Part shown: one piece after another, positions 13,234 through 64,000 of the stretch | How positions within the stretch are numbered: position 1 is the first letter of the stretch | How the letters are laid out: the number at the start of each line of letters is the position of its first letter | Assembly (NCBI GenBank): GCA_963675595.2 | Contig: CAXXLZ010000002.1 | Span: 1,536,001 to 1,600,000 of the forward strand | DNA from: Thermodesulfobacteriota bacterium | GTDB lineage: Bacteria > Desulfobacterota > Desulfarculia > JACQYL01 | Length of the DNA stretch: 64,000 nt | Direction: 5' to 3' | Position numbers and translations under genes: made by a program | The notes under the pieces: model-generated | The model's input: the letters and a program-made list of their open reading frames with translations, nothing else | Told to the model about the DNA's origin: nothing | The model's database searches: none

Positions 13234-13248
13234 AACCCTCTGTCACCC

Positions 13249-13484: not shown

Positions 13485-13508
13485 TACCCGGTGAACGAGT
13501 ACACCCGT

Positions 13509-43352: not shown

Positions 43353-44444
43353 TCAGGTTCGCTCTACGACCCGATACACCGCCAGGGTTTGGAATGCGGT
43401 TGTATTCCAGTCATAGCGCTTGAGTCGTTCTTTGCCCGCTCGTATCAGGTTGTGCCGTAACTCGCGGGAATTGAGTACCTGAAGAACGGCGTGAGCCATG
43501 TTTTCCGGGTCCGACGGATCGAACCAGGCCGCAGCCTCACCCGCGACCTCGGGTAGGGCTCCAGCTCGCGCGGCCGCGATGGGCACACCCAAAGACATGG
43601 CCTCGAGAAGCGGCAGGCCGAATCCTTCCTCGAAGGACGGATAGATCAGCAGTTCCGCTTCGGCCAAGACGGCGCCCAAGTCCCGGGCTTGCAGGTACCC
43701 GGTAAAAATCAGCGTGCCTTCTTGAATGAAAGGGGCGGCCTCTCGGGCCGCTTCATCCGAAAGCGATTCGGGAGAACCTGTGACCACCATGCGTACCCCG
43801 GCGTCCCGGATCCGGGGAAACGCCTTGATCGTTCCCTGGAAATTCTTGTAGCTCACTCCCACCGAATGCCCTAGAAAGACGATGAAGGGGCGCCCAATTC
43901 CAAATCCCTCAACCGAATTCCACCGGTCTTCGGGAGCCTTTCGCAAAGGTTGGCCCGCCAGGTGGGTGACGTGGAGTTTCCCGCCGGAAACCGGATAGGT
44001 GCGCAAAACCGAGCGCCGGGTGAATTGGGAAATGCATACCACGCCGTCCAGTCGGGGAATTTCGTCCCGCAACAGGTTCCGTCTGCGAAGGGCGCCCGGC
44101 GTTTGAAACTCCGGATAGGTCGAGTCGAACAGCGTGTCGTAAACCGTCAGAATGCGACGATAGGGACCCGGAACGGGAACGAACCAAGCGGAATGCAATA
44201 GGTCCGGTTTCAGACGAAGGATAAGCTCCGACAGGGACTTTCGTTCATCGGGACTTTCGTTGCGAATGGGTGTACGAACCGTTTCGCCGTCTCCGTCATC
44301 GGGTTCCGCCCCTTGGATTCGGAGCTTGATATAGCGGTTGTCCGGATCAAGCTCGGGAAGCCGTCTGCCCAGTTCCCGGCAATAACAGGCCACCCCTCCG
44401 TTGGACAAGTCCGCGATGCGCAAGTCCAGGACGATGTTCTTCAG
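43353..44444 (-). CDS. glycosyltransferase family 4
   Basis: LTVYD, ISQFT, YKN and YPSFEEGFGLPLLEAM motifs. Start placed at a CTG overlapping the upstream stop. Confidence 0.88.
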   Translation of the reverse strand: MKNIVLDLRIADLSNGGVACYCRELGRRLPELDPDNRYIKLRIQGAEPDDGDGETVRTPIRNESPDERKSLSELILRLKPDLLHSAWFVPVPGPYRRILTVYDTLFDSTYPEFQTPGALRRRNLLRDEIPRLDGVVCISQFTRRSVLRTYPVSGGKLHVTHLAGQPLRKAPEDRWNSVEGFGIGRPFIVFLGHSVGVSYKNFQGTIKAFPRIRDAGVRMVVTGSPESLSDEAAREAAPFIQEGTLIFTGYLQARDLGAVLAEAELLIYPSFEEGFGLPLLEAMSLGVPIAAARAGALPEVAGEAAAWFDPSDPENMAHAVLQVLNSRELRHNLIRAGKERLKRYDWNTTAFQTLAVYRVVERT

Positions 44445-45163
44445 TTCCTCGTTCTCCTTAAGTAGCTGCGCAGGTGAGGTCTCAACGGTTTGGAAAACCC
44501 GAGAGCGCGCCTCGGCTGAGTCTTTGGGGTTCCAAGTCGGCAAAAAAAGTAGGCGGACTGGGTCAGGTGCTCCGGATACCTGCGACCGATACGGTTGAGG
44601 AGGGGCTGAAGAAAGGGATACAGAAACTGGGACCAGGCAAACAGACGAAGGCGGTTTCGACCCGTATATTCGCCCGAATCCTCGATGCCCACGCGGAGAG
44701 CATCCAACAAGAGCGTCACCACAATGGGAAATCCGCAACACCGATATTCGGCCCGGTCGATTGTGAAATGCTTGGTCAGCAGGGCTTCATATTCGGCCCC
44801 TTCGGCGCAAAGGCGATGGAACCCGTTGGTCACGGAGCGCCGATAGGTTCGGCTGATCCTACCGAGAAAGCGATTGGAAGCCGCCAGGGCGGCGCTGACG
44901 AGCACACGACAGCAAGGGGCCGCAACGCGGGCCAGTTCCGCAACCGCTTCGCTTTTGCCGTCCAGATGTTCCAGAACGTCGATGCATTCGACCTCCTGAA
45001 ATCGGTTGGATTTAAAGGGCAGAGCCCGCAGGTCCGCGGCCACATAAAGAAACCCCGGCCCGTTACGTTCTCGGTTGCGCCGGAGGTGCCGGAGAGAATA
45101 ATCCGTTACGACGACCTTTTCCCCCTCCACAAGCTGATTGCCACAACCTGCCACCAGCTTCAT
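44441..45163 (-). CDS. class I SAM-dependent methyltransferase (type 11)
   Basis: KLVAGCG, ADLRALPF and DVLEHL motifs; ATGA-coupled to the upstream gene. Confidence 0.82.
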   Translation of the reverse strand: MKLVAGCGNQLVEGEKVVVTDYSLRHLRRNRERNGPGFLYVAADLRALPFKSNRFQEVECIDVLEHLDGKSEAVAELARVAAPCCRVLVSAALAASNRFLGRISRTYRRSVTNGFHRLCAEGAEYEALLTKHFTIDRAEYRCCGFPIVVTLLLDALRVGIEDSGEYTGRNRLRLFAWSQFLYPFLQPLLNRIGRRYPEHLTQSAYFFCRLGTPKTQPRRALGFSKPLRPHLRSYLRRTRN

Positions 45164-47889
45164 TTTTCCGTCCCGGAGGTTTCCGCACAGGGTTTCAGCT
45201 CGACGGGCGGGTCTCCATGAAACAAGTTGTCGTCGCAATACTGCTTTCGTGAGCGGATACCGCATTGCCGGCAAAGCGGAAGGCAATCCCACGTTCCCTC
45301 ACGATGATGACGCCGGTACTCATGCAAAGCCTCCGAACGCCATACGTCCTCAATGGACCGCTCGGACAGGTCGCCCACCACCTGCGTTGCGTTCACATCG
45401 AAGCAGCACGTGGTGATCCGACCGTCCGCGTAGACGGCCAGTTCGTTCCAAAGTCCCACGCAGGGTGTGGGGGCCGAAGGTTTGGGAGACGACAGGGAAG
45501 TGGGCACGTTGCCGGCGAAATCCATAAAGGGCTTCCGAAACACCTTGATTCCGGCCGTATCTTTCAGCTTCTCCCGCCAGAGTGCCTCGAACGTGCGTAC
45601 CAGGGGCGCGTTTTCCTGGGTCTCAATGATCTGAATGGACACCTCGGGCTTGGAAGAACGACCCGACTCGGCGTAAAGGGAGACGAATCGTTCCACATTG
45701 CCGAGCACTTCATCGAATCGGCCGCCGATGCGGTTGTTCTCGTAGTCCGCCTGTTCGACGCCGTCCAGAGACAGTATCAGCCGCTTCAGGCCGGACTCGA
45801 TCAAATTGTGCGTCGCCTCACGGGACAGCAAGGTGCAATTCGTGCTCAGGCCCGGCAGAAGAATGGAGTTCGACGCGACCCCGTATTCCAGCATGTCGAA
45901 CAGATTGGGATGCATCAACGGTTCGCCGAACAGATGAAACCACGATTCCACCAAGCCGAAGCTTCGGATTTCGTCGTGGATACGCTTCCATAAATCTGAA
46001 TCCATGTGGCGAACAGGTCGCGTCATGGAGGAGCGGGGGCAAGTGCGGCATTTCAGGTTGCACGCATTGGTGACCTCGATGTCGATTCTGCGGGGAAACG
46101 GTGGGAGCTTGAGTTTCATTTGTTGAATCCCCGCGGATCGAACCCGCTGATACGCCTGCCGACTCGCCCACTTGATCGGGGACTCGGAAGGGCTCAGCAC
46201 CATAACGCGCCCCTGACCGTCGATGCGCACGGCCCTTCCCTCCGGCATGGCTTCAAGAGCCCACCGCTCCCAGTCCGTGGGGTCTTTGTTGTCGAGGGCA
46301 TCCCTCAACAACACCAACAGATCGGGACGATGGGATTCGAAAAACGTCCCCACGAAACCCGGTGTCGAACCGGCCGTCTCGTGCCCTTGGTTCACCAACG
46401 CCGAAGAGGAACCGTCGAGGGAACCACAAACCGGAATCATTGACGCATCGGGAAACAGGGTTCGCAGCTTGCCTTCCACGCGCTCCGCGATGTACGGAGG
46501 TGCGGTACGCAAAAGCAATATCTTCCGAACTTCCTTTTTGTCGAGCCCCGCGGCGAACACCTCCATGTCGTCGCGAAAGAACGTCGCCGCCCTGATCATG
46601 TCGCGCAGAACGGATTCCTCGTGTTCCGCCGTGTAAAGAATGTCCTGTTTGGGGTTTTCGATCCAGGCCTCGGAAGTCAAAAAGCCTTCCCGCAAGGCCT
46701 GTTCATAGATTTTGGTGCCCGGATAGACAATCATGGGACCGCCCGAAAATACATTGTCGGGCTGAAGGCGGGATAGAAAATCTCGCGTTTCCATGACGGT
46801 TTCATGGTCTTCGCCCGGGTATCCCACCAGGAGCAGGAAGAAGGCCTTCATATCCGCCTGTTTGGTCCATTGGAACGCTCGTTCCGCCTGGGTGAGCGAA
46901 AAGCTCTTTCCCATGCGTTTGAGCATTTTGGTGGAACCCGATTCGACCCCATAGAAAACCGCGAGACATCCCGCCTCGTTCATCCGGCGAAGCAGTTCCG
47001 AATTTACCGTATCCACTCGTGAGTAGGCGGACCAGGCGATGGACAGGTTCTTCCGTTCCAATTCATCGCAAAAGGCGTGAAGACGATCTTGGTTCAGCGT
47101 GAAGAGATCATCCAGGAATTCAAAAAAAGCGACTCCGTACCGGCCCTGAAGGAACTCGATTTCCTCAACGATGCGTTCCGGCGAAAGTGTGCTGCAGGTG
47201 TGTCCCCAGAAAGCGGAGGAGGAACAGAAACGACATTTGAACGGACACCCCCGACTGGTGACCATGGTCATTCGTTTGTACTGGGAAAGGGGTCGGCCCT
47301 TCCATTGAAAATGCTTATAGACCGGGGTCATCAATGCGTAGAGGTCCATATCGAACAAATGATACGGGATTCGAGGCGCATTCCCCGCCGACGAGACACG
47401 GAGCTTCGCACCGGATACATGCACATCCCCGTTGCTTCTGAAAGCGAGGCCCTGGATAAGGTCCGGTGATACGTCGTGGGACAGGGAATCAGCCAGTTCT
47501 CTGAAAGACTCGTCGCTCTCTCCCAGACAGATATAGTCCACTTGCGGGTAGCGGGTGAGAATCTGTTCCGCCAGGAAGGTGGCGTGGTGGCCGCCAAGAA
47601 CGATTTTGGCGGAAGGTTGCCACGATTTGATTCTGCGGGCCAGTTCGAACACCGTGTGTCGGGTGGTGGTCAGGCACGGAATGCCGACCAGATCAGGCCT
47701 AAAGCGGTGAACCACGGGCCAAAGCCGATACGTCACTTGGTCCCAAGACCCCAGATGATACAGGTCCTCGACGCGTACTTCGTGCCCGGATTGCTCGGCG
47801 ATACCTGCCAGCACGCCGACGCCCGTGGGAAACGCGGACAAGAAGAAATTCTTGGCGAAAAACGGAGGCAGAACAAAGAGGATTTTCAT
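45160..47889 (-). CDS. fusion: B12-binding radical SAM + second radical SAM/SPASM domain
   Basis: LGGHHAT and SRGCPFKCRFC in the first enzyme; EVTNACNLKCRTC, GEPLMHP and PC...CCFD...CLPLCRQC in the second. Confidence 0.92.
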   Translation of the reverse strand: MKILFVLPPFFAKNFFLSAFPTGVGVLAGIAEQSGHEVRVEDLYHLGSWDQVTYRLWPVVHRFRPDLVGIPCLTTTRHTVFELARRIKSWQPSAKIVLGGHHATFLAEQILTRYPQVDYICLGESDESFRELADSLSHDVSPDLIQGLAFRSNGDVHVSGAKLRVSSAGNAPRIPYHLFDMDLYALMTPVYKHFQWKGRPLSQYKRMTMVTSRGCPFKCRFCSSSAFWGHTCSTLSPERIVEEIEFLQGRYGVAFFEFLDDLFTLNQDRLHAFCDELERKNLSIAWSAYSRVDTVNSELLRRMNEAGCLAVFYGVESGSTKMLKRMGKSFSLTQAERAFQWTKQADMKAFFLLLVGYPGEDHETVMETRDFLSRLQPDNVFSGGPMIVYPGTKIYEQALREGFLTSEAWIENPKQDILYTAEHEESVLRDMIRAATFFRDDMEVFAAGLDKKEVRKILLLRTAPPYIAERVEGKLRTLFPDASMIPVCGSLDGSSSALVNQGHETAGSTPGFVGTFFESHRPDLLVLLRDALDNKDPTDWERWALEAMPEGRAVRIDGQGRVMVLSPSESPIKWASRQAYQRVRSAGIQQMKLKLPPFPRRIDIEVTNACNLKCRTCPRSSMTRPVRHMDSDLWKRIHDEIRSFGLVESWFHLFGEPLMHPNLFDMLEYGVASNSILLPGLSTNCTLLSREATHNLIESGLKRLILSLDGVEQADYENNRIGGRFDEVLGNVERFVSLYAESGRSSKPEVSIQIIETQENAPLVRTFEALWREKLKDTAGIKVFRKPFMDFAGNVPTSLSSPKPSAPTPCVGLWNELAVYADGRITTCCFDVNATQVVGDLSERSIEDVWRSEALHEYRRHHREGTWDCLPLCRQCGIRSRKQYCDDNLFHGDPPVELKPCAETSGTEK

Positions 47890-47971
47890 GGCCTTATTCG
47901 TCTTGAGCGGAAAGGGTTACCCGGGGTGACTCCCCGAGAATGATCGGCGAGGGATGATGGAAGAACACGAC

Positions 47972-48004
47972 GAAAAAGCGGGGCATTCCCACAGTCGCTT
48001 TTTC
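47972..48004. terminator. intra-operon hairpin (possible terminator/attenuator)
   Basis: gaaaaagcg...cgctttttc 9-bp stem. Confidence 0.35.
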
Positions 48005-48009
48005 AGCGG

Positions 48010-49128
48010 TTAAGATCGGACACCTCCCCCCAGTTCCAAAAACCCGGTGGAGGCGATGAAATCATCGGCGACAAAGCATTGGAAGGCGGGGGCCAGCACT
48101 TGCGGATCCGGCGGGGTCACGCCCGCCTTGGGGGGGCCGTGACGAATGTATTCCACGCTGCCATACTCGGACAGCAGTTCACTATGGGATTTCGCAAGCC
48201 ATCGATTGTGAAGATAACCCATGCCTCGGCACACACAATCCCACTCCTCTTCGGAACGCCCATACATGTCGAAGGGGTCCACCCCGTCTCGGTGCTCCCC
48301 CGGGTGGATATGATGAAAAAACCACCCTCCCGGTCCAAGTATACGCGTTTGCTCGCGAATGACCTCCCTTGGATCGGACACGTGCTCGAGCAGGTCGAAA
48401 CTGAACACATAGTCGAAACTGCGGTCGCGCAGCGGCATTTTCTCGGCGTTGAACGTTGCGAACACCACGCGTGAAGGATTGAATCGGACCCGGTCCGACG
48501 CAATGGAAACGACTTCTCTCATGGGTATGGGGAAAGTTCGACCACTGTTGCGGGTGTACTCACCCACGGCCCGATAGATCGTCGCCTTGGGCCGGGCATC
48601 GGGAAAGAAGATGCTTTCGTCGTCCAGGTTGCAGGCCAGGACCCGCGCTCCCATGCAAGCCATAAGGACGTCCACCGCCAGGGTTTGTCCCACGCCGATA
48701 TGAAGGACCCGTTTGTTCATCAGGCTTTCCCCCAACGAAGTCGCGAACCCGACATAAGTCTCGAATATCTTCAGGTAGTGTTTCAGATCGAATGTGAACT
48801 GGACGTCCAGGACGAAGTCCTTGAACGGCTCGAACCCCATTCGAGAGAGTTGCCGCACAATGCTTCGATACCATTGTGAACACACCACGATGAGTTCCGA
48901 TTCCTTTTTGGCTCGCAGCCGCTCAGGGGGAAAGACCTCCTGGTCATGAATGATGCGTCCCCACTTCTCGGCATCGTTGTCCACCACATATTGAACGGAC
49001 GCACGCCCCTCGGTCCGTTGGAGAAACGACCGCAATCCCCCGGAAGCGCCGAAGGCAATGATTGATCGCGACACGTTTCCATCCAAATTTCCGGAAAAGA
49101 ACGGCTCAATCTCCGGTTGAAGGCACAC
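48010..49128 (-). CDS. SAM-dependent methyltransferase with N-terminal Rossmann-like accessory domain
   Basis: IIAFGASG...VDNDAEKWG N-domain; VLHIGVG and MPLRDRSFDYVFSFDLLEHV; GGAG + GTG start. Confidence 0.8.
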   Translation of the reverse strand: MCLQPEIEPFFSGNLDGNVSRSIIAFGASGGLRSFLQRTEGRASVQYVVDNDAEKWGRIIHDQEVFPPERLRAKKESELIVVCSQWYRSIVRQLSRMGFEPFKDFVLDVQFTFDLKHYLKIFETYVGFATSLGESLMNKRVLHIGVGQTLAVDVLMACMGARVLACNLDDESIFFPDARPKATIYRAVGEYTRNSGRTFPIPMREVVSIASDRVRFNPSRVVFATFNAEKMPLRDRSFDYVFSFDLLEHVSDPREVIREQTRILGPGGWFFHHIHPGEHRDGVDPFDMYGRSEEEWDCVCRGMGYLHNRWLAKSHSELLSEYGSVEYIRHGPPKAGVTPPDPQVLAPAFQCFVADDFIASTGFLELGGGVRS

Positions 49129-50797
49129 GGTCTTCTCCCATCTCTCGCTTGATCGGCGGCAACGACTCGAAATCAATGCACGAGTTTTTCAGCCGGTCCA
49201 CGCTCCACCCCTCCAGGGCCGACGTGTCCCGGAACACCTCGGGTCGAATCGCCCGGTAAACCCGATAGCCGTCCACGGGAGCCACATTCTCGAGCAGTTG
49301 AAATCGTTTGGACAGCGCCGGTTCGGCTATGTGATGGTCCGATCCTCCCCGGTCCCGAAAAACGACCCCGTCGGGCGGCAGCACCAGATACACGGCGTGA
49401 TAACGAGGGTCGCACACGTAATAGTCGATGTATCGGCACAACATTTCCAGGGAGGCCTTCTCCAGCTCGATGGGAACCTGCCACGCCCCCGGATTCCAAC
49501 CGAGAGGCATGTAGTCGCGATACTTGAGCAGCAAGAGATCCGTGGGTTCCAACAGGCCTTCGAGCGCATCCGCCACCGGGCGCAGCGACTCGGGTTCCGG
49601 AGGTTCGGGCTCGTAAAGGATCATGGTGTCCGGCCCGTAGAACGCCCGCACCGAATGGACGGCTTCCCACACGAGGATCGCGAGGAACATGCCGATTCCT
49701 AAGGCATCCAGCCGCGCGAGCAGTAACACGGTCCAGGGAATGAAGCACGGCGCCAGGGTGCCGCCGGCCCGACTGGCGAAATGATAGTGTCGGCGCAGCA
49801 CGGCGAACAAAGCGATGAAGAGCGGCAAATAGACCACGCAGAACACCAAGACGGTCCGGTTCATCTCCGCCCCTCCGACAAAGAAGAACACGGCCATACC
49901 GGCAATCCCCAAGGGATGAAACCAGCTCAGGGAACGGAAAAGGCCGAACCGGTGCCGTGGGTTTAGAGCGGTGGCGAAACCTTGCCCAAGCAACTCAACG
50001 ATGGATTTCAATCGTGAGGTAAGTGTCCGCCGTCGGATTTCCTCGGGCGACACGCAAAGGCGTTCGTCTTCCCGGGTGTACCCGAAAGAACGGCATTGCG
50101 CCGTCAGGACCTGCAGAATCGTGTTCTTGCGCCCCGAAACCACATCCCACACGAGCGGCGCAAGGCCTAGCGAGAACACCACGGTTAATTCCCACAGAGA
50201 AAACCCGCCCAACACGGATGAGATGAGAATCGCCGCGCACGGAACGAATCCCGAACTTTTGATGCGAACGGCGAGAGCAGCAAGCAGGCCCAGGCACCCG
50301 GCCTGCACCCAGGAAGGGTCGCTGCCTAACGCGTTCAAGACCGTCAAAGCCGCAGTAACCACGACCATGAGCATCATGTCCGGGCTCACGATGACACTCA
50401 GGTACAGAAGCACCGGCGATACGCAGAAGACCCAGAAGGGAGCCCCGGCCCACGAAGGAGTGATGAGTCGGGAAAGCCCGTACGCGGTGAGTACGGCGAA
50501 CAACAACTGCAACGTCTGAGCCCCGCGGTGGGCAGGCAATCCGGTCCATCGCAGAAACCATCCCAACGCACGGATATACGCTGTATATTCGGTTGCTTCC
50601 AGGGGATGCTTCCGCCAGGAGGGATAGTGATCAAAAGGAACCTGCACGATTCCGCTGTCTCGAAACGTCATGGCCGCGCGCAGCAAGGCGGCCTGTCTGC
50701 AAGGATTGGAGAACCTCTTCCAGAGAACGAGCCGCGCGACGATCATGAAAAACGCGGGGATCAGGATTTCAAGCCGCACGTTGGGCGTGCCCCGCAT
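49106..50797 (-). CDS. polytopic membrane protein, GT-C (ArnT/PMT-like) glycosyltransferase candidate
   Basis: About 10 hydrophobic segments, SPD in a loop, LAALAVRIKSSG pattern and a soluble C-tail. Confidence 0.6.
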   Translation of the reverse strand: MRGTPNVRLEILIPAFFMIVARLVLWKRFSNPCRQAALLRAAMTFRDSGIVQVPFDHYPSWRKHPLEATEYTAYIRALGWFLRWTGLPAHRGAQTLQLLFAVLTAYGLSRLITPSWAGAPFWVFCVSPVLLYLSVIVSPDMMLMVVVTAALTVLNALGSDPSWVQAGCLGLLAALAVRIKSSGFVPCAAILISSVLGGFSLWELTVVFSLGLAPLVWDVVSGRKNTILQVLTAQCRSFGYTREDERLCVSPEEIRRRTLTSRLKSIVELLGQGFATALNPRHRFGLFRSLSWFHPLGIAGMAVFFFVGGAEMNRTVLVFCVVYLPLFIALFAVLRRHYHFASRAGGTLAPCFIPWTVLLLARLDALGIGMFLAILVWEAVHSVRAFYGPDTMILYEPEPPEPESLRPVADALEGLLEPTDLLLLKYRDYMPLGWNPGAWQVPIELEKASLEMLCRYIDYYVCDPRYHAVYLVLPPDGVVFRDRGGSDHHIAEPALSKRFQLLENVAPVDGYRVYRAIRPEVFRDTSALEGWSVDRLKNSCIDFESLPPIKREMGEDRVPSTGD

Positions 50798-52670
50798 TCC
50801 CGTCGTTGGACGATACAAGGTTATCCGCTTCCGACAACTGAAACCAGGTCTCCAATACGACCAAGTTCCAGAAGAAATTCGTCTCTTTCAACGTATTCTT
50901 TTCCCTTTTCAAGAAACGATCGAGTCTTGCGGTAATAGCGCCGTGACGGTAAATCGCACGCTGTTGAAACGCTCGGCGAGACAAAGGATCGGCTTCGGGA
51001 TCTTTCAGCAGTTCTTTGAGCCAACGTTCCAAAGGAACCGTGAAACCGTGTTTGCGTCGCCGGGCAATGGGCCGGGGAATCAGGTCGCCCAAGGATTCTC
51101 TCATGAGGGTCTTGGATCCTTGGAACGGTGCTCTCAAGACCAACGGCAACCGATGCACCAATTCCACCAGGCGGTAATCCAGATAGGGGGATCTGGCTTC
51201 AATGGAGGCGGCCATGGAACCCATGTCCATCTTGGCCAGCAGGTCGTTGGGCAAATACAAACGCGTGTCCACCGAAAGCGACCGTTCGAGAAAGCTTAAG
51301 CCCTCGGAGTCGGCATCGAACAAATCCTGCGGGCGGGTGCACACCTCCTTCAATATCTCCGGCACAAACATGCTCCGCAATTCACCGAACGTGGTACCGG
51401 ATTCCCACTCCACATAGGTCTCGTAAAAAGGAACATCCAGTCCTTTCATGAGCCGGCGGACGTCCCGGTGAAGTCTGCTCAGAGCCCGACTGGTTCGGGG
51501 GAAAGCCGCCGTGGGAGACCGCAGTAGGTCCAGCAATCGGGCCGCTTTGTTCTTTCGATATCCTCCAAACAGCTCGTCCGCCCCATCCCCGGTCAAGACC
51601 ATCTTGACGCTTTCACCGGCCAAAGCGCATACGTCGTAAGTGGGGAAGAAAGATGAATCGCCGAAAGGCTCACCGAATCTGTCCATCATGGCGGACATCT
51701 TGGCCTGGAAAGTATTCCCGACCTGCCGCACGTTGTGTTGCGACCCGAAAGTACGTGCGGCCAAGCCGGCATAGCGGCTCTCGTCCTGATCCGTGTCCGC
51801 GAACGAGGCGGTCAAGCTCCTCAAACCGGGTTGGAAGCGCGCCGCGGCGCCGAGCACGGCCGTGGAGTCCATCCCTCCGCTCAGCAGGACGCCCATGGAA
51901 ACGTCGCAGCGCAACCGAATCGAGACCGCGTCAAAAAACAGGTCTCGGAATTTCTCTTCAAATTTCTCAACATGGGCGTCACCGTCGGGTTTCGGGAAAT
52001 CCCAGAAGCGCCTGGATCGCATGTCGTGGGGACTCACGCTCAACATACGGCCGGGTTCCAGCTTCCAGACGTCTTTGTAGATGGTAAGAGGCGCGGGGAT
52101 GCATAGGAAGGAAAAGAGCGCAGCCAGGGCGTCGGGGTTCACGGCGCACGGCGAACCGGGGTAGTTCATCAAGGAGTTGAGTTCCGAGGCGAAGTAGAAT
52201 ACACCCGGTGCCCGCCGATAGTACAACGGCTTTTTTCCAAGACGGTCCCGCGCCAGCAGCAAGCGTTTGCGATTCCGATCGAACAGGGCCAAGGCGAACA
52301 TGCCGTTGACCGCTCGAATGAATTCTTCACCCCGCTCCTCATACAGGTGAACCAGAGTTTCCGTGTCGCTCAACGTGCGGAATCGGTGCTCTTTTTCAAG
52401 TCGTTCGCGCAGCTGGATATAATTGTAGATTTCTCCGTTCTGCATCACCACCATGGAACCGTCTTCATTCATCATCGGCTGACTGCCGCCCTCCAAATCC
52501 ACAATGGCCAATCGTCGAAACCCGAAAGCCAGCACGCCGCCGTCTTCCCGATGAACGTAGGTGCCTTCTTCATCAGGGCCCCGGAGATACATGGGGGCCA
52601 TCATGCGTCTCAGAACGCCTTCCACGTCATCAGGCGCCGGATCGGCGTAGAATCCACAAATACCGCACAT
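50769..52670 (-). CDS. asnB: asparagine synthase (glutamine-hydrolysing)-like amidotransferase
   Basis: MCGICG, RGPD, NGEIYN, LSGGMDS, TGDGADELFGGY and SIEARSPYLD motifs. Confidence 0.93.
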   Translation of the reverse strand: MCGICGFYADPAPDDVEGVLRRMMAPMYLRGPDEEGTYVHREDGGVLAFGFRRLAIVDLEGGSQPMMNEDGSMVVMQNGEIYNYIQLRERLEKEHRFRTLSDTETLVHLYEERGEEFIRAVNGMFALALFDRNRKRLLLARDRLGKKPLYYRRAPGVFYFASELNSLMNYPGSPCAVNPDALAALFSFLCIPAPLTIYKDVWKLEPGRMLSVSPHDMRSRRFWDFPKPDGDAHVEKFEEKFRDLFFDAVSIRLRCDVSMGVLLSGGMDSTAVLGAAARFQPGLRSLTASFADTDQDESRYAGLAARTFGSQHNVRQVGNTFQAKMSAMMDRFGEPFGDSSFFPTYDVCALAGESVKMVLTGDGADELFGGYRKNKAARLLDLLRSPTAAFPRTSRALSRLHRDVRRLMKGLDVPFYETYVEWESGTTFGELRSMFVPEILKEVCTRPQDLFDADSEGLSFLERSLSVDTRLYLPNDLLAKMDMGSMAASIEARSPYLDYRLVELVHRLPLVLRAPFQGSKTLMRESLGDLIPRPIARRRKHGFTVPLERWLKELLKDPEADPLSRRAFQQRAIYRHGAITARLDRFLKREKNTLKETNFFWNLVVLETWFQLSEADNLVSSNDGNAGHAQRAA

Positions 52671-52758
52671 CTCGTTGCCTTTGTCCGTAATGATTCAGGA
52701 GGTGCCGGTCACTAAGAGCCTCGGTACCGAGCCTCATAGGCTTGGGGGCTTCATCGCG

Positions 52759-55653: not shown

Positions 55654-55659
55654 GATCGC

Positions 55660-57213
55660 TCAGCCCACCTCCGCGACCAGTGTTTCCAGTCTGTCGAACA
55701 ACGGGTCGTGATGGAACGTCTGGTACCGTCGTCTTCGTCCCAGTACGGCCAGGCTGTAGACGTCGTTGAGAAGCTCCTGCAACTTGAGTTCGGGTACGGG
55801 CCCGAACAGATGATGCTTGAGTCGGTAGCTTCCCCATCGCCCCAACAAGCCGTACACCTTGCCTGCGAGACCGTCTTCCTCATAGACGCCGCCCACCAAA
55901 CCGAGGGCGCGAAGGTGTTGAATTCGGCGATCGTCTTCGGCGGACAGCCAGGGCACGTTCTGAGGAAATCGCTGTTCCACGCGAATCCACTCCACCAGCC
56001 TCCGCGGCGGGCGAAAACCCAGTTCCAGTCCTTCGTCGTAAAGTTCCGTTCCTGGGAAAGGAGCGTAAATGAAAAAACCGTAGGTGAACATCTTTCCGTG
56101 AAGGGCCTTCAGTTTGGACACCAAGTCCACGATATCCATTCGGTTCCGATGTGTTTCGCCCGGAAAACCGAAAATAAATGACCCATGGAACGCAATTCCG
56201 CAGTCCGTCACTTTCCGGGCCATGGCGAACACGTCTTGGATTACGATATCCTTCTTGATATGCCGCAGCATCTCCTCGCTTCCCGCTTCGACGCCGAAAA
56301 GGAGGCGGCGGCATCCCAACCTATACAGTTTCTTCAACGTGGAGGGCTTGATCTGCCGATGATAGTCCACGCGGCAACTCACTCCGTCCCAATTAACGGA
56401 AAGGCCTCGATCCAGAATGCCCTGACAAATGTCGTCCACGCGACGTGCGTCTACGAAGAAATTGGATTCCGTGCCGAAATTGATCACCAAATCCTTTCCG
56501 TAACGGCCGGCGGGGCCGTAGGCTTCCATGTATTGATCGATCAGCTCGAGAACACGACCCGCCGACAAGGCTCTCCAACGACGACCGTAATAAAAGTTGT
56601 TGAAGCAGAATCCGCATCGGTGTGGACATCCTCGACTGGTGATGAGCGTCAGCTTTGGGTGCTTGTCCGCCATGAACAGGGGGTCGAGATGAAAGGGCAG
56701 CAGCCCCAGGCGCTCCAAGTCCGGAGGAGGACCGCAGGGCTCGCCGACCACGGTCCCGTTTTCCCGCCGGTAAACTCCGGGAATCTTGAGTTCCTTCGTG
56801 TCCGAGTTTTCTATGGCACGAATGAGGGCGGGAAACGTCTCTTCCGCCTCACCCTTGACCACATAATCGATCCAGTGATGAGACGCGGCCTCCACGGGCG
56901 TCATGGACGAGTGAACCCCTCCCCAGACCACGGGTACGTCGCTGTTCTCCTTGACGATCTTGGATGCCTGCAGCGCAAAATAGATCTGAAGTCCCGTAAG
57001 GGAGGTGACGCCAACGCAGACCGGGTGATCCTTCAGCTCCTCCTTCAGGGTTCTTCGCCAGTCCGGATCGGCTTGTTGATTGATGATGCGCACCTCATAG
57101 CCCAGTTCCACCAGCGGCGCGCTGATGGACAACAAAGCCATGGGCGTGATGATTTCGTCCGGAGTGTATCGGTGTTCGCAAAACGTCGGTTGGATGAGAA
57201 TGACTTTTCGCAT
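55660..57213 (-). CDS. B12-binding radical SAM protein
   Basis: WGGVHSS, GEAE, TSRGCPHRCGFC, GVEAGS and PGTELY motifs. Confidence 0.92.
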   Translation of the reverse strand: MRKVILIQPTFCEHRYTPDEIITPMALLSISAPLVELGYEVRIINQQADPDWRRTLKEELKDHPVCVGVTSLTGLQIYFALQASKIVKENSDVPVVWGGVHSSMTPVEAASHHWIDYVVKGEAEETFPALIRAIENSDTKELKIPGVYRRENGTVVGEPCGPPPDLERLGLLPFHLDPLFMADKHPKLTLITSRGCPHRCGFCFNNFYYGRRWRALSAGRVLELIDQYMEAYGPAGRYGKDLVINFGTESNFFVDARRVDDICQGILDRGLSVNWDGVSCRVDYHRQIKPSTLKKLYRLGCRRLLFGVEAGSEEMLRHIKKDIVIQDVFAMARKVTDCGIAFHGSFIFGFPGETHRNRMDIVDLVSKLKALHGKMFTYGFFIYAPFPGTELYDEGLELGFRPPRRLVEWIRVEQRFPQNVPWLSAEDDRRIQHLRALGLVGGVYEEDGLAGKVYGLLGRWGSYRLKHHLFGPVPELKLQELLNDVYSLAVLGRRRRYQTFHHDPLFDRLETLVAEVG

Positions 57214-57245
57214 GGCGCCTTCTTTCCCTGCGGGCCGTTTAGTGG

Positions 57246-58676
57246 CTAAAATCGTACGTTGGCGTAGTGTCCAAAGAAACGGTTGACATAGCCGCGGGCG
57301 AAACCTTCGGCATAGGCTCTAAATCTTCCGGGTTGGGTGATTTCTTTGAGCCTTCGCCGAATGAATTCCGTGCGGAAATAGAACCGCCGGTAGGCTTTCT
57401 GAATGAAACGATTCATGTCCGCAGCCGACATGTCCGGAGGAAGCAGGTAACAGTCCGATTCACAGGCACGATCATCCAGGCATGCCTTCCAGAAATCCGG
57501 AGGATGGGTGCCCCGGGCCACTGCTTCGCGGTAGATTTCCGTTCCCGGTTTCATCATCAGAATGTTGAAATTCACCCAGTCGGGGTCGAGTTCCAACGCC
57601 CATCTTACGGATGCTTCCATTTCTTCCACGGTCTCACCGGGCAGACCGAGCATGAAATACGCATAGGTCTCCATGCCCACGGCTTGACAGGTGCGGAACG
57701 CGCGTCGAATTTGTTCAAGGGTCACCCCTTTCTTCAAGTTTCTTAGGTGCCGTTCCACACCGGTTTCCACACCGAAACGCATTTGCCTGCATCCTGCCGC
57801 TTTGAGGCTTCGAATCATTTCCCGGTCGATGGTGTCTACGCGAGCGCTCACCACCCAGCTCAGATCCAATCGTCGTTTCCGGATGAGGTCGCAAATCCGA
57901 AAAACCCGCTCCGGTTTCAGATTGAAGGTTTCATCGTAGATGTAGAATTCACGGGCACCGGCCGCACGGCAACGCTCCATTTCCTCCACCACCCATTCGG
58001 GCGAATGGTAGGTGACCTTTCGCCCCCAGAAGCCGTGGTCGCAGAAGGTGCATGTGAAAGGACATCCCCGCGAACTGATGAGGTAGGTCACCGGGTTCCG
58101 GCCCAACGCTGTGCGATAGGCGCGATTGGGGAACAGGGAACGGTCGGGATGCGGCAGTCGGTCCAGATCGTCCAGCCGCGGTTTCAAGTGCAAATTGCGG
58201 GTGTCGAGGCTCTCTTTGGACAATACTCCGGGGATCGCCTCCATGTTCTTGCCGTCGCGAATCGCTTTCACCAATTCGGGAAACGTCTGTTCTCCTTCCC
58301 CCACGACCCCAAAATCAAATGCGCCGCGTGCCAGCGTTTCCGCGGGATAAGTCGCCATATGTGCGCCTCCCAACACCGAAGTGGCGTTGGGCAGTACTGA
58401 TCGAACGATGTCGGCGGCCTCTAAGGCACCCCGCACGGCGTCCGTCATGGCGGTAACACCCACGACGTCGACGTCCCGGCCTTGCAAGGCGCGTTCGAAC
58501 TCGGCGAGAGTGCGCACTCGCACCAAGCTGTCCAGAACGTCCACCCGGAAGCCCTGCCGTTCCAAGCTCGCCGCGAGGTACGCCAAGCCCAAAGGAATGA
58601 GAGCGGAACCCGGCACGGCGTATCGGCCCGAAGGTCCGGCGGGACGGGGATGATGGCGGATAAGCAGAACGTTCAA
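57246..58676 (-). CDS. B12-binding radical SAM protein
   Basis: PLGLAYLAA, LGGAH, GEGE, SSRGCPFTCTFC and GLPGET motifs; TTG start. Confidence 0.92.
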   Translation of the reverse strand: MNVLLIRHHPRPAGPSGRYAVPGSALIPLGLAYLAASLERQGFRVDVLDSLVRVRTLAEFERALQGRDVDVVGVTAMTDAVRGALEAADIVRSVLPNATSVLGGAHMATYPAETLARGAFDFGVVGEGEQTFPELVKAIRDGKNMEAIPGVLSKESLDTRNLHLKPRLDDLDRLPHPDRSLFPNRAYRTALGRNPVTYLISSRGCPFTCTFCDHGFWGRKVTYHSPEWVVEEMERCRAAGAREFYIYDETFNLKPERVFRICDLIRKRRLDLSWVVSARVDTIDREMIRSLKAAGCRQMRFGVETGVERHLRNLKKGVTLEQIRRAFRTCQAVGMETYAYFMLGLPGETVEEMEASVRWALELDPDWVNFNILMMKPGTEIYREAVARGTHPPDFWKACLDDRACESDCYLLPPDMSAADMNRFIQKAYRRFYFRTEFIRRRLKEITQPGRFRAYAEGFARGYVNRFFGHYANVRF

Positions 58677-58767
58677 AAGATACTCGTCATAATTTCGGAT
58701 GATGGAAAAAGCGCCTGTCGAGAATTTTGGTAGCCCCTTCCTTGCCCGTGGGACGACCGTATCGGGT

Positions 58768-59946
58768 TCAAATTCGGGACGATACCGGAACTAGGCTTTG
58801 CCACCGTGCGTTGTCTCGTACGGCCTCCCGGACGCCGACAACCGGCTTGTGACCTGGAAACCATCCCATGATTTCATTGTACAGATGAACGGTTTCATCT
58901 TCGGTTCGGCGATGAAACCAGAGGCGTCCCAATGCCATCCAGGAAGCCCATATGCGCAGAAACGGCGGTTTCCGCAGTGCTTTCAGCAGGTACGCACCGA
59001 AGGGGCGTCCGCGCACAAGATTCCTGAAAGCAAAGGACGCACAATTACCCCAGAACGGACGGCCGAGCCGGAGATCGGGAAGCCTTCGGGCCATGATCTC
59101 CCATGAAAGGGCCTGAGAATCCCAATAGCGGGAAAGGTAGTGTCTCAGCCGCCGGTACAACCCCTCGACAACACTCTTCATTCGGTCCTCCAGGCCCGAC
59201 AAGACCGGCTTTCGTCCGCAGAGAGCCGATCGGGCGAAAACCAGGTCCTCCGACGAAATACCGCGACGCGCCGTGCTCCTATTTTCGTCGACCAAAACCG
59301 GAGATGCCCCTTCGTAAAGAGCGTGAGGATACGATTGGTGCCCGCCCTGATCGATGAGGTCGGACTCCAGACAGGCCCACACGGTTTTGGCCGTTCGGTG
59401 CGCCCACAAAATCTTATCGTTAATTGTCCAATATGCTTCTATCAGCCCCCAAAGGCGGTTGCACAGAAGCCGTAGCCCCTGGCCCGCACTCATGACTCCG
59501 GAGAACGAATGAGGACGACGCCCTTGGATGTCCAAACCCCAAATCGGGATTCCGGCGTCGAACAGGTTCCGATAATCCAGGATGTGCGGCAGGTGCGCGA
59601 GAGTTATGGGTGATTCCAGGGCCACGTCTACGTGCGCTCCATTGGGCAGTGACCACGACAGCTTGGAGCGTCGAAGTCGTTCCACAAGCAGACGTTGGGT
59701 GGGAACCACCGCCACGAGGTCGAAATCGCTGATAAAACGAATGACTCCCGATGCATCGCTAAACGCACAGAAGTCTCCTGTGCTGAAGCTGCCGTAAAGG
59801 ATCAGGGCCCGGAGACCTGGAATCCGTTTTCGGGCATCCTCTGCGATGCGCCGTAACGTGCGGACGATTTCATCACGCACTTCCGGCGCCGCGCACGCGT
59901 AAAATTCCGGAAGACGGACCCCGTGGGTCCCGATGGGTCCGTTCAT
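58768..59946 (-). CDS. Pol-beta-type nucleotidyltransferase domain protein
   Basis: LILYGSFSTGD...SDFDL...VDV (hG[GS]x9-13DhD-like with insertion), followed by a helical C-domain. Confidence 0.7.
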   Translation of the reverse strand: MNGPIGTHGVRLPEFYACAAPEVRDEIVRTLRRIAEDARKRIPGLRALILYGSFSTGDFCAFSDASGVIRFISDFDLVAVVPTQRLLVERLRRSKLSWSLPNGAHVDVALESPITLAHLPHILDYRNLFDAGIPIWGLDIQGRRPHSFSGVMSAGQGLRLLCNRLWGLIEAYWTINDKILWAHRTAKTVWACLESDLIDQGGHQSYPHALYEGASPVLVDENRSTARRGISSEDLVFARSALCGRKPVLSGLEDRMKSVVEGLYRRLRHYLSRYWDSQALSWEIMARRLPDLRLGRPFWGNCASFAFRNLVRGRPFGAYLLKALRKPPFLRIWASWMALGRLWFHRRTEDETVHLYNEIMGWFPGHKPVVGVREAVRDNARWQSLVPVSSRI

Positions 59947-61283
59947 ATGCTCAAAGGAGAGCCGTTCATGCAGGGCTCGGAAGAAGGTTGCTTCATCCCC
60001 ATCATGGAATCCGCCCGGCCGTGTCGAGCGTGACCAGAGCCTTCCTCGGCGGAGCGAAGCTCTTGATGTCCGGCTTTTCTAGCCTGGAGTACCGATGGCG
60101 CGTATCCCCGACGCAAAATCTGCGAGAGGCGGGCGAACAACCCCGAAGCAATTTGATTCATATCCCGTTCCGCCAGGATGTAAGCCCTTGCCGCCCGACC
60201 CATTCGTTCCGCCATGTGCGGGTCCTCCAGTACCGATTCCATAGCGGATGCGAGAGCCCGCACATTCCCTTCCGGAACCGGCCAACCGTTTTCTCCCGGC
60301 CGTACAACTTCACCGCGGGCGGGCCAATCGGTGGTAATGACCGGAGTTCCGCAGCTCATGGCCTGCAGCAAAGCGCTCGGCAAAGGATCGTAGCCGGTGG
60401 AAAAGGCGATAAACGCTCGAGCCCCGGCGAACAAGGCCGGCATTTGCGCCTCGGGAACGTTGTTTGTTATGCGCACGAATTCCGAGAGCCCGAGATCAAG
60501 CACCATCCTACGAATACGCGCCAGGTAGGAGGAATTATCCACGAAACCGACCAAGCTAAGTCTGAAAGGAAACTTTTTTTCCGCAAGGATACGCGCGGCC
60601 GAAACCACGAGGTGGAAGCCCTTCTCTGGTGAGAATCGTCCAACGGTGAGAAATTCCGGCACCTCCTCGATGCGTTCCACGGGCCGATAGAGGCTCGTGT
60701 CGACTCCATTGGGAAAAACGGCCGGCTGCGAGTCGAGATGAAAGAAGGCTTCCGTCATTCGAGCGTCGTTGAGGCAATTGGGGGCCACAAGCCGGGCGTT
60801 ACGCAGATTCCATTGCAGCAAAGGGCGACTGACGAGTTGGATGAAGCACTTGCGCAGGAAATTTCGCACACCGGTATTTAGATTCTTGAGATACCCGACG
60901 TTCAACCCTGGGACCAGATAGCCGTAGGAGACGTTTCGCCGGTTGATGAGGGGAAGTTCCCACACAAGAGGTGAGAGGCTGATCGCCCAATCGAAGGCGC
61001 GGGTCTTCAGCAGATTCTCCACAAGAGCGTAACGCCGGAGACTAAGACTGATACCTCGACGGTGGCCTCCAATGTGTGTCATGCTGAAGTAGCGATGGAC
61101 GTGCACCCCGTGGATTCGTTGCTCCGAAGGTTGGTCTTGGGTCTTTCGGGAGACCACGTGCACCTCGGCCCCTGCTCGAACCAACGCCCGGGACAGGTAG
61201 AGCGGAAAATACTGTCCACCGCAGAACAAAGGTTCGTCGTTCGACGCGGGATACGGATAGGCGCAAACGATCAGAAGCCGCAA
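59943..61283 (-). CDS. glycosyltransferase family 4
   Basis: PNGVD, VGRFSPEKG and LLQAMSCGTPVITT motifs; GGAGG + TTG start. Confidence 0.88.
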   Translation of the reverse strand: MRLLIVCAYPYPASNDEPLFCGGQYFPLYLSRALVRAGAEVHVVSRKTQDQPSEQRIHGVHVHRYFSMTHIGGHRRGISLSLRRYALVENLLKTRAFDWAISLSPLVWELPLINRRNVSYGYLVPGLNVGYLKNLNTGVRNFLRKCFIQLVSRPLLQWNLRNARLVAPNCLNDARMTEAFFHLDSQPAVFPNGVDTSLYRPVERIEEVPEFLTVGRFSPEKGFHLVVSAARILAEKKFPFRLSLVGFVDNSSYLARIRRMVLDLGLSEFVRITNNVPEAQMPALFAGARAFIAFSTGYDPLPSALLQAMSCGTPVITTDWPARGEVVRPGENGWPVPEGNVRALASAMESVLEDPHMAERMGRAARAYILAERDMNQIASGLFARLSQILRRGYAPSVLQARKAGHQELRSAEEGSGHARHGRADSMMGMKQPSSEPCMNGSPLSI

Positions 61284-62527
61284 GGGAACATCCTCCACGG
61301 ACCCGGCGTGTCTCGTTCCCCGGAGGCCTCCATCAAGTCCCGGTACAGATTCGTATATCGATCCACCACCTGTTCCCAACCGTATTCCCTGCGGACGCTT
61401 TCCACCGCGTTGCGTGAAACGCTCAATTGAACTTCCAGTCGCATTAGAACTTCGTCGACAGCTTCGGCCATGAGGTCCGGTCGATCTACGGGCGTCAAGA
61501 AACCGTTTTCGCCGTGTCTGATCAGGCGGCTCAGGTCCCCGGACTTAGCCGCGAAGACCGGTCGGCCGCAGGCCATGGACTCCGTGACCACACTGGACAC
61601 GCCTCCGATTTTTCGAAACGGAAAAACGCACAGGTCGGCTTTGGCGATCTCCCCGGCCAGGTCTTCATGGGCCATGGGCGGTAAGAATTCCACGGGAAGT
61701 CGTTTTTCCTCGGCTCGTGCTTTCATGGCCTGCAGCAAGGGTCCGTCACCCACCACGCGGGGCCGCAAAGACCTGCCTCGATCCCGAAGCGCCTCCAGGA
61801 TTTCAAGCAATTGGAGGGGACCGTTGGCCTCCGTGATGCGCCCGAAATACAACAAGCGGCTGGGGCGGCCGTTGCCCGTGGGAAGGCTTTCCACCTCGGG
61901 TTCCGGGGGTCTGAAAAGGGAGGTATCGACTCCCACGGGAATCACGTGAATTTTACGTGAAGGAATTTCGGCCCCGATGAGCTCGTCTCTTAAGTCCGAA
62001 CCGTTGACGATGACCGCATCGGCCGCTCTGAAAGCGAGCCGGGCCGGCCATTGAAAGAAGATGCCTTTGGTACGGTCGTATTTGTCTTCCACTTCACGAC
62101 GGCTCTCACCGTTTCGAAAGAGATTGCCTCCGAATCGGATCACCAGCTTATGGTTTCCCCCCAGGCGGCACCACGCGCCCACCAGGGCCGAGGAATGCAG
62201 GTCCGTATGGATGATTTCCGCCTTCTTAATTGCATGGGCCGCCCGTGTACTCAGGAACAGCGTGGTCAAACGCTCCCTGATGATTGCCGGAGTGACACGG
62301 TTGAAATCAACGGGAAAACGATCATAGGTTCGTATGGGATGGACGGGATAGGAGAAGCCTTTCCTGGACAGCCCTCTTTCCCAGATGAGGGGAAAGACGC
62401 GAGGTTTCCATTCGGGTCGCCGAGACAGATGATCCACTAGAGCCCTGTTTTGGATGGGTCCGCCCCCGAGCTTGGGATAGAAGTTGTCGAAAATGAAGCT
62501 GATTTCAGTTGTGTTGCAGTCTCGCAT
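61271..62527 (-). CDS. glycosyltransferase family 4
   Basis: FYPKLGGG, IPVGVD, YFGR, VGDGP and ESMACGRPV motifs. Confidence 0.88.
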   Translation of the reverse strand: MRDCNTTEISFIFDNFYPKLGGGPIQNRALVDHLSRRPEWKPRVFPLIWERGLSRKGFSYPVHPIRTYDRFPVDFNRVTPAIIRERLTTLFLSTRAAHAIKKAEIIHTDLHSSALVGAWCRLGGNHKLVIRFGGNLFRNGESRREVEDKYDRTKGIFFQWPARLAFRAADAVIVNGSDLRDELIGAEIPSRKIHVIPVGVDTSLFRPPEPEVESLPTGNGRPSRLLYFGRITEANGPLQLLEILEALRDRGRSLRPRVVGDGPLLQAMKARAEEKRLPVEFLPPMAHEDLAGEIAKADLCVFPFRKIGGVSSVVTESMACGRPVFAAKSGDLSRLIRHGENGFLTPVDRPDLMAEAVDEVLMRLEVQLSVSRNAVESVRREYGWEQVVDRYTNLYRDLMEASGERDTPGPWRMFPCGF

Positions 62528-63905
62528 ACCAATGATAAACCGCTTTTTTCACAGATGAGGGCACCAGGTGACGGACGGCGCCGTAACCTTCCGACAAGAC
62601 ATCGAATGTAAGCGCTTCCAGGGCCTTACGGCTCGATTGTCTCAGAAGCGTCCGATACCGGAACAGGAGACGATTGAACCGGATACGTCGGGACGACATG
62701 TGAGGGTAGCGCATGATGGAAACAAAACGGTGCGAACGCGGCAGGGTTCGATTCTTTATCCAGCCGTGTTCAAGGGAGTCTTTGTAGAGTTTTGTCCCAG
62801 GATAGGGTTGAAAGGTCGATACCTGTATGAAGTCCGGCTTTGCTCGTTGATTCAAGGCCACGGTGGCGGCGTAATCCGCCTCGGTCTCCGTGGGCACTCC
62901 CGTCATGTTGAAGGCATAGGTTCGGATACCGGCCTCCGCGGCCAGATGGAAGGCACGGATGATGCGCGCATCGGACACCTTGCGCCCCATGATTTCCCGG
63001 CGGATGCGGGGGGACCCTGATTCGATGCCCATTTGCAGTTCCACGCAGCCTGCGGCCTTCAAGGCCCGGATCACGCGAGGTGAAACCATCTCCGGGCGTG
63101 CGTTGCACACGAAAGGCAGTCCGATACGTCGAGGATAGGCTTCGGCGAATTCTTCAAGCCAGGGGATGGAAACGGCGAACAGGTCATTGACGAATTCTAC
63201 GCTTCGGACATCATGGTTCGCCCGGACCGATTCGATTTCGTCCAGAATGGCATCAACCGTCCGCATACGCACGTACGACCCGGTTCCGCTGTAAAACCCA
63301 TGCATGAAATGGTTGATGCAGTAGTTGCACCCGAAGGGGCAGCCTCGTCCCGACAACACGTCGAGACGCCCGTCGCGCGCGTTGAGGTATCGGTCCAGAT
63401 CGAACAGTTCCCGGTCGGGCAAAGGAATGGAATCGAGCCGTTTCGCCAAGGGCGCCGGAGCATTCAGCACGATTTCGTCGCGCCGTGTGTACCCGATGCC
63501 CGGCACTTGATGGATTTCGCCGTGACCGAAGGCATTGCAGAATTCCACGATGGTATGTTCGCCTTCTCCACGGCCGATGAAATCGACTCCGGGCCATCGG
63601 AGGACCTCCTGAGGCGCCACCGTGGCATGGACTCCTCCCACCAGCACGGGAAGATGGAACTTTTCCTTTGCACGACGTACCCATGCCTTGGCTCTAGTCG
63701 CTTCCGGACTTCGTATGGAGAAAGCGAGCAAATCCGGTTGTTCGGCCCTCACGCAATCTTCAAAGGCTTTTCGCCCGGGATCGAAGGTCCCGTCGAAAAG
63801 CGCGGTGCGGTGTCCTGCTTTCTTGAGAGCGGCGGACAAGTAGGCCACTCCCAAAGGGATGTATTCCTGATGGGTCGCGTTGAGATATACGAACAGCACC
63901 TTCAT
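62505..63905 (-). CDS. B12-binding radical SAM protein
   Basis: PLGVAYLSA, VGGVHAT, GEGE, SGRGCPFGCNYC, GIESGS and PYPGT motifs. Confidence 0.93.
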   Translation of the reverse strand: MKVLFVYLNATHQEYIPLGVAYLSAALKKAGHRTALFDGTFDPGRKAFEDCVRAEQPDLLAFSIRSPEATRAKAWVRRAKEKFHLPVLVGGVHATVAPQEVLRWPGVDFIGRGEGEHTIVEFCNAFGHGEIHQVPGIGYTRRDEIVLNAPAPLAKRLDSIPLPDRELFDLDRYLNARDGRLDVLSGRGCPFGCNYCINHFMHGFYSGTGSYVRMRTVDAILDEIESVRANHDVRSVEFVNDLFAVSIPWLEEFAEAYPRRIGLPFVCNARPEMVSPRVIRALKAAGCVELQMGIESGSPRIRREIMGRKVSDARIIRAFHLAAEAGIRTYAFNMTGVPTETEADYAATVALNQRAKPDFIQVSTFQPYPGTKLYKDSLEHGWIKNRTLPRSHRFVSIMRYPHMSSRRIRFNRLLFRYRTLLRQSSRKALEALTFDVLSEGYGAVRHLVPSSVKKAVYHWYARLQHN

Positions 63906-64000
63906 GCGCGTACGGCTTCCACGTAAATGTTCCGAGGTATTCCTCGGGCTGGTGAACGACGGATTTGGGTGACGGTGAAACCATTCCGTTTCAGCGTGCG
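63902..64000 (-). CDS. 3' end of upstream gene (possibly methyltransferase-like), partial
   Basis: RTLKRNGFTVTQI...NIYVEAVRA-TGA; its stop overlaps ATG 63905 (ATGA), so the operon continues beyond the window. Confidence 0.55.
   Translation of the reverse strand, partial: RTLKRNGFTVTQIRRSPARGIPRNIYVEAVRA

Follow-up and report, generated by a model that had tools for sequence, protein, structure and literature searches.

A tRNA-Arg integrative element with five cobalamin-dependent radical SAM genes in a probable cell-envelope glycan cassette

What do several radical S-adenosylmethionine (SAM) enzymes that depend on cobalamin do when their genes lie side by side among glycosyltransferases? The question is raised by a run of genes in a 64,000-nucleotide stretch of DNA (the window, which is the whole stretch analysed: positions 1,536,001 to 1,600,000 of contig CAXXLZ010000002.1, assembly GCA_963675595.2, from a Thermodesulfobacteriota bacterium), for which a preliminary description had proposed a new system of glycan tailoring. 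We suggest that the run belongs to a cassette, carried by an integrative element at a tRNA-Arg gene, that probably builds or re-decorates a cell-envelope glycan. The locus is real, larger than first noted, mobile, and linked to glycans by context; it is a mosaic, one instance of a type that is widespread and uncharacterised, and its conserved core is a nucleotidyltransferase paired with a phosphodiesterase. Coordinates below are window positions, and those beyond 64000 are window-equivalent; adding 1,536,000 gives the position on the contig (C2 of the host genome, G000).

All 14 co-oriented genes of the preliminary description are present as minus-strand open reading frames (ORFs) at 43353-63905, and they form the downstream part of a cluster of 26 co-oriented genes that extends 11.7 kb beyond the window, with 12 more genes upstream, up to 75680. 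All 26 ORFs are open and have short gaps between them. The 14 had been called mostly overlapping, which holds at seven of the 13 junctions if longest-ORF starts are used; the other six have gaps of 6-183 bp. The four B12-radical SAM proteins reported in the window each match the B12-binding and Radical_SAM Pfam families (g03, 45160-47889; g09, 55660-57213; g10, 57246-58676; g14, 62505-63905), and a fifth such gene lies beyond it (g18, 66988-68535). All five proteins exceed both Pfam cut-offs and have the architecture of class B radical SAM enzymes, in which a B12-binding domain at the N terminus precedes a radical SAM domain carrying CxxxCxxC; their motifs for cluster binding and those of the cobalamin domain are preserved. 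That four proteins hold five CxxxCxxC motifs is accounted for by g03, a fusion in which the B12-radical SAM part is followed by an unassigned middle domain of about 150 aa and a second Radical_SAM domain with a SPASM/twitch domain. This fusion recurs in the proteins P0050 (52%) and P0051 (49%). For its twitch domain the best matches are BtrN and cytosylglucuronate decarboxylase; its middle domain (46100-46600), also present in P0050, gave no match in Pfam or the fetched loci, and none to GT9.

Are these five enzymes parts of a single conserved system, and can their chemistry be read? They are only 24-35% identical to one another and sit at five separate places in a quick tree of 71 rows, and a check of neighbourhood conservation did not find the gene set in the genomes searched; the idea of one conserved new system is thus not upheld. 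Recent in-place duplication was considered as an origin of the five and is ruled out by the same identities and tree positions. None of the five reaches the cut-off of any named subfamily against which it was scored, and no model for HpnP, MoeK5 or GenK appeared among the matches. Against HpnJ (TIGR03471) they score 105-190 bits with a cut-off of 577.6, and the best scores against HpnR (TIGR04367), BchE (TIGR02026), PhpK (TIGR04479) and the ladderane-type model (TIGR04072) are 128, 162, 135 and 145, with cut-offs of 650, 481, 600 and 360, respectively. The families TIGR04295 (B12_rSAM_oligo) and Sden_1168 are tied to oligo- and polysaccharide cassettes; here too all five enzymes remain below one third of the cut-offs, the best Sden_1168 score being 120 versus 575. 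The downstream cobalamin-binding motif of the g14 product contains a TsrM-like Arg, but this is found in only 1/29 of its relatives, and g14 scores 38 against the TsrM model TIGR04428 (cut-off 500). In the same motif, TokK/ThnK/CysS-type methylases carry a Trp (PMC9204698), a residue missing there from all five proteins. One network cluster is reported to hold Fom3 and MoeK5 along with HpnJ, a ring-contracting B12-radical SAM that remodels a glucosamine ring (PMC9204698). Because methylases and non-methylases co-cluster in this way, the type of reaction cannot be read from sequence, and the multiple radical C-methylations that had been proposed find no support there.

The guess that the genes might ride on an integrative island is borne out by the boundaries of a 47.6-kb element. 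It is flanked by identical 45-bp repeats of the 3' end of tRNA-Arg(ACG), at 35114-35158 on the left and 82676-82720 on the right; the repeat occurs exactly three times in the genome, the third copy being the 3' end of the tRNA-Arg(ACG) at 176093-176168. Between the two outer repeats lie a tyrosine integrase just inside the left one (35215-36540, plus strand, PF00589), an exported C25-family peptidase of 1849 aa with F5/8 type C and Ig-like repeats by Pfam (37658-43207, plus strand), the 26-gene cluster, an insertion sequence (IS) and a primase-helicase (79696-81597). The peptidase gene is cargo of the element and convergent with the glycan cluster. An integrase together with direct repeats of a tRNA 3' end places the element among those that target tRNA genes. 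Its GC content (0.566) equals the genome average (0.561), and composition hence gives no sign of foreign origin. In the four nearest genomes, the in-window part of the element has only one match, of 257 bp. Contigs of four runs from one study, probably the source of the assembly and so no independent support, show neither indels nor an excision joint between 34500 and 54400. We note that a second element, of about 93 kb, sits in tandem at the same tRNA-Arg (82676-176168; G000:C2:1618676-1712168), with an integrase-like ORF at 174856-176070.

The link to glycans had been proposed from the cluster itself, and gene neighbourhoods support it. Within this genome, all five cluster enzymes have a GT2 or GT4 gene within 5 kb, as do only 2/24 other B12-radical-SAM-like ORFs and 429/5000 random positions, so that the association is not one of chance. 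The test was extended to relatives in other genomes for g09, g10 and g14, leaving out g03 and g18, by taking the best match per genome in same-phylum samples of 300 genomes (g09) or 170 (g10, g14 and, as controls, two B12-radical SAMs from the same genome), with up to 29 loci per query and 1.5 kb scored on either side. Of the relatives' loci, 33/86 contain a glycosyltransferase, versus 2/37 control loci (Fisher p 1.4e-4, a value overstated by kinship, since related loci are not independent). These figures are to be read with the knowledge that the GT9 and export profiles were seeded from the test loci themselves, and that Pfam was run on 86/147 unannotated test ORFs and 59/88 control ORFs. By enzyme, the counts are 7/29 for g09, 12/28 for g10 and 14/29 for g14, with 2/29 and 0/8 for the controls, whose neighbours are mostly fatty-acid or polyketide genes. 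Thirteen of the 14 hits for g14 are GT9 heptosyltransferases, and the g14 relatives lie beside these genes, often between them (L176-L178, L180, L181, L183-L186, L188, L190, L191, L196), which suggests a B12-radical SAM step in the synthesis of the lipopolysaccharide (LPS) core. Among 20 wider regions around g09 relatives, some are Wzy/Wzz/Wzx, GT9 or PMT_2 loci, several are rich in radical SAM genes, and some contain no glycan gene at all. In one 60-kb region (G311:C72:1-60000, L045-L047), genes for GT2, GT4, Wzy, Wzz and a flippase type surround at least 10 B12-radical SAM matches.

The most conserved unit of the cluster is a pair of enzymes that the preliminary description had not singled out as a unit, g11 (58768-59946) and g08 (54397-55653), both on the minus strand and 3.1 kb apart. 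The host genome has a single gene of each family, both of them here. That g11 is a nucleotidyltransferase, as had been proposed, receives no support from Pfam, where it has no match, but it is borne out by the predicted fold. A word search with g11 gave no result, 25 relatives were found among 1.8 billion representative sequences, and a fold predicted from the single sequence was poor; a model built from 21 aligned rows (pLDDT 84) has aminoglycoside nucleotidyltransferases as its best structural matches (7uy4, Z 11.0, rmsd 4.5, 214 aligned; ANT(4'), Foldseek E 5e-7). Across the 21 rows, G52, D74 and D76 are invariant and D107 nearly so, which matches the Gly-Ser/Gly motif, the DxD and the third acidic residue of Pol-beta-like nucleotidyltransferases. 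The predicted fold is that of ANT(3'')(9)/AadA and ANT(4'), at about 15% identity. One relative, P0011, had no match among plasmids.

We examined 90 loci of this nucleotidyltransferase family: eight from 400 same-phylum genomes, two metagenomic, and the 80 best of 367 obtained by scanning bacterial and archaeal genomes with a query alignment from which g11 was omitted; the set excludes the three closest relatives of g11 (P0001-P0003). A g08-type phosphodiesterase is present in 72/90 loci, adjacent in 48 and fused in nine; among the 40 loci that span at least 19 kb, 37 have one. GT2 or GT4 genes occur in 80/90, Wzx, Wzy-type and export proteins are the other frequent neighbours, and the pair is found in Wzx/Wzy/Wza loci and in archaeal glycan loci across many phyla. 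Pairing or fusion in glycan loci sets g11- and g08-type enzymes apart from aminoglycoside nucleotidyltransferases and from the nucleotide pyrophosphatase/phosphodiesterase (NPP) family. Fusions also join one or both of these enzymes to B12-radical SAMs: P0014 is a B12-radical SAM fused to a nucleotidyltransferase, and one ORF of 3442 aa (L084) combines a B12-radical SAM, nucleotidyltransferase, phosphodiesterase, two GT2 and two methyltransferase domains with tetratricopeptide repeats (TPR). ORFs of more than 3200 aa with nucleotidyltransferase, phosphodiesterase, GT2, methyltransferase, TPR and radical SAM domains were seen at L084:4784-15112 and L085:3-9827. The 20 g09-centred regions yielded no g08-type phosphodiesterase at the same threshold, and two weak matches otherwise.

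The g08 protein, the type I phosphodiesterase of the preliminary description, belongs by Pfam and alignment to the alkaline phosphatase superfamily, is NPP-like and has no hydrophobic leader. It carries the two-metal ligand set of NPP and alkaline phosphatase, and the positions (D12, D189, H193, D234, H235, H341) are 100% conserved in 72 relatives. Unlike NPP-family enzymes, however, neither g08 (Leu) nor any of these 72 relatives appears to have Ser or Thr where the alignment places the ENPP Thr nucleophile, the residues there being Gly in 65, Ala in five, Leu in one and Cys in one. A shifted nucleophile is possible, because about two thirds of the relatives (48/72) have Ser, Cys or Thr two residues further on, where g08 has Gly.

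The remaining genes, all on the minus strand, fill in the picture of a tailoring cassette. Pfam recovers the three GT4 glycosyltransferases (g01, the last gene, 43353-44741; g12, 59943-61379; g13, 61271-62527) and the sulfotransferase (g07, 52759-54213, with a GC content of 0.47 versus about 0.57), and the AsnB-like glutamine amidotransferase (g06, 50769-52670) also scores over the TIGR01536 cut-off. The count of two to three SAM methyltransferases is explained by two found within the window by Pfam, the class I enzyme g02 (44441-45292, true start probably near 45160) and g04 (48010-49176), and a third, g15 (63902-65089), that straddles the window end, with its 3' end at 63902-64000 inside. 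Besides g11, the only in-window gene without a Pfam match is g05 (49106-50818), a multi-pass membrane protein by its hydrophobic segments and an ArnT/PMT_2-like GT-C candidate; a sequence search gave no relatives, and in a language-model search its nearest Atlas clusters are named ArnT/PMT_2-type GT-C (score 0.99). Beyond the window follow g16, deacetylase-like by a weak match (E 0.0012), a GT4 (g17), a membrane-anchored GT2 (g19), a cytidylyltransferase (g20), a GDP-fucose-synthase-like reductase (g21), a second GT2 (g22), a methyltransferase (g23), a GT-B-like protein (g24), an RfaH/UpxY-like factor (g25) and a winged-helix regulator (g26, ending at 75680). An RfaH-like antiterminator heads the cluster, which has sugar-nucleotide enzymes, a GT-C-like gene and seven other glycosyltransferases, soluble or anchored in the membrane, and, as the preliminary description had it, contains no polyketide-synthase or hopanoid gene, here among all 26. 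No ops-like motif was found upstream, and counts of promoters and terminators in the region are at chance level.

Context supports a glycan as the substrate of these enzymes, and the pathway that we infer would run as follows. The membrane-anchored g19 would load a sugar onto polyprenyl phosphate, and GT4 and GT2 enzymes would lengthen the lipid-linked sugar in the cytoplasm, where soluble tailoring enzymes may add methyl groups, a carboxamide (through AsnB) and sulfate. The g11 enzyme would attach a nucleotide monophosphate to a hydroxyl group of a sugar, which the apparently nucleophile-less g08 would then resolve to a phosphate-type group. Each B12-radical SAM would alter an unactivated sugar carbon, probably by C-methylation for some of them, with ring contraction or deoxygenation as further possibilities, and the twitch domain of g03 may oxidise or epimerise. 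A host flippase would then move the glycan unit in trans, and the GT-C-like g05 could transfer it to an outer acceptor, be it LPS, another glycolipid or a surface protein.

Several observations weigh against this proposal. Among the 26 genes, Pfam reveals neither a flippase or ABC exporter nor a polymerase or priming transferase; 53/86 relatives in the neighbour test have no glycosyltransferase within 1.5 kb, and these relatives are only about 30-40% identical; a B12-radical SAM occurs in only 11/90 nucleotidyltransferase loci; and the GT-C call for g05 comes from one language-model search. Inside the cluster, a terminator-like hairpin (54345-54324) directly precedes the low-GC gene g07, which suggests more than one unit, with a possible module boundary at the hairpin. 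Polysaccharide loci of the Wzx/Wzy or ABC-dependent type encode a priming transferase, a flippase or exporter and a polymerase, whereas the cassette lacks these and the host has them elsewhere. In favour of the proposal, its genome holds six Wzx-family genes and four priming transferases outside the cassette, and also APS kinase and CobS. A search for an STT3 oligosaccharyltransferase gave none. Three-component periplasmic glycosylation systems (ArnC/ArnD/ArnT, or the GtrAB type) are often carried on mobile elements; the cassette resembles them in its membrane GT2, deacetylase-like gene, GT-C candidate and integrative element, and differs in having many more transferases and tailoring enzymes and no flippase. 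By analogy, it may best be likened to a glycan-conversion locus with chemistry of the MoeK5, GenK or HpnJ type, outside all the named radical SAM subfamilies tested.

That the cassette serves to make a glycoside or phosphoglycolipid for secretion, akin to moenomycin or an aminoglycoside, with the nucleotidyltransferase protecting the producer and the phosphodiesterase reactivating the product, is a reading we consider unlikely. The moe cluster, like the cassette, has AsnB-like amidotransferases and GT4s. The closest solved relatives of the cassette's enzymes are AprD4, BtrN and aminoglycoside nucleotidyltransferases. B12-radical SAMs known to act on sugar carbons, such as MoeK5, GenK and GenD1 in the sugar tailoring of moenomycin and gentamicin, belong to such glycoside pathways (PMC9204698, PMC8950095). 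Those pathways, however, use one or two such enzymes toward a secreted antibiotic, whereas the cassette has five divergent ones and, besides its RfaH-like head, a GT-C-like gene and a sulfotransferase. The 26 genes include neither an exporter nor a prenyltransferase, the GT-C candidate and membrane GT2 point to the envelope, and the distribution of the g11-g08 pair over surface and archaeal glycan loci of many phyla argues in the same direction.

We regard cytoplasmic glycosylation of a protein by the cassette, in the manner of flagellin, as quite unlikely. Relatives of the head genes g26, g24, g25, g22 and g20 do adjoin flagellin-like genes (a label read from sequence) in one genome, G234, at 65% for g24 and 66% for g22; yet this context was seen in that genome only, and g24 matched just 3/300 others. 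Transferases of the TPR or Maf type are missing from the cassette, both g05 and g19 encode membrane proteins, and the host has a separate locus of that appearance (G000:C2:1775000-1818500; L170, L008). This second glycosylation locus encodes TPR-type glycosyltransferases, an AsnB fusion and a single B12-radical SAM, and has the look of an island for flagellin glycans.

Little probability attaches, likewise, to the view that modules of several glycan loci have accreted into the cluster, without a single pathway and with some radical SAM genes as idle passengers. The five unrelated radical SAM lineages, the internal hairpin, the low-GC genes and the arrangement without a copy in the genomes searched would fit it, but 26 ORFs that are open and co-oriented with short gaps, radical SAM motifs that are kept, and a g03 fusion that recurs do not. 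Highly improbable is a role in extending or remodelling hopanoid side-chain sugars: the host has a squalene-hopene cyclase and no HpnJ over the cut-off, and the cluster's GT2, deacetylase-like gene and B12-radical SAMs recall the HpnI-HpnK-HpnJ module, in which HpnJ has GT2 and deacetylase partners, but the best HpnJ score lies far below the threshold (190 versus 578), the cyclase is on another contig and the element contains no hopanoid gene.

Returning to an envelope glycan as the product, a bolder reading, which we consider less likely than not, is that cobalamin radical enzymes are routine, unrecognised tailoring enzymes of prokaryotic surface glycans, including the LPS core, and that this cassette joins five of them to a nucleotidylate-then-resolve route, in which a transferase of the antibiotic-modifying type and a nucleophile-less dimetal enzyme would leave a sugar bearing phosphate, linear or cyclic, giving a B12-dependent, horizontally swapped coat with C-methylated or ring-altered sugars. 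In the full-text literature, with most subscription journals and supplements outside the search, we found no description of B12-radical SAMs in surface-polysaccharide loci or of the nucleotidyltransferase-phosphodiesterase pair, nor any support there for a link to cyclic-phosphate O-antigens; the sugar-acting cobalamin radical enzymes found there belong to antibiotic and hopanoid pathways. Should such enzymes act on envelope glycans too, a class of substrates would be at hand for a large group of enzymes, so far unassigned, of anaerobes and uncultured lineages; the supply of B12 could influence surface identity, and new monosaccharides would be expected. The defined ends of the cassette make cells with and without it comparable, and the g11-g08 pair, small and apparently soluble, is open to direct testing.

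Elsewhere in the host genome, five further B12-radical SAM genes form another cluster (G000:C1:451866-480980, L004-L006), with polyketide-synthase-like and acyl-CoA-ligase-like neighbours, as labelled from sequence. Within the window and outside the element, IS-interrupted minus-strand glycan genes lie at 7137-15235 (a sulfotransferase, a DUF4915 protein, a GT2, an epimerase and a split transketolase pair), and 5555-6568 encodes an exported protein with an IPTL-CTERM sorting domain.

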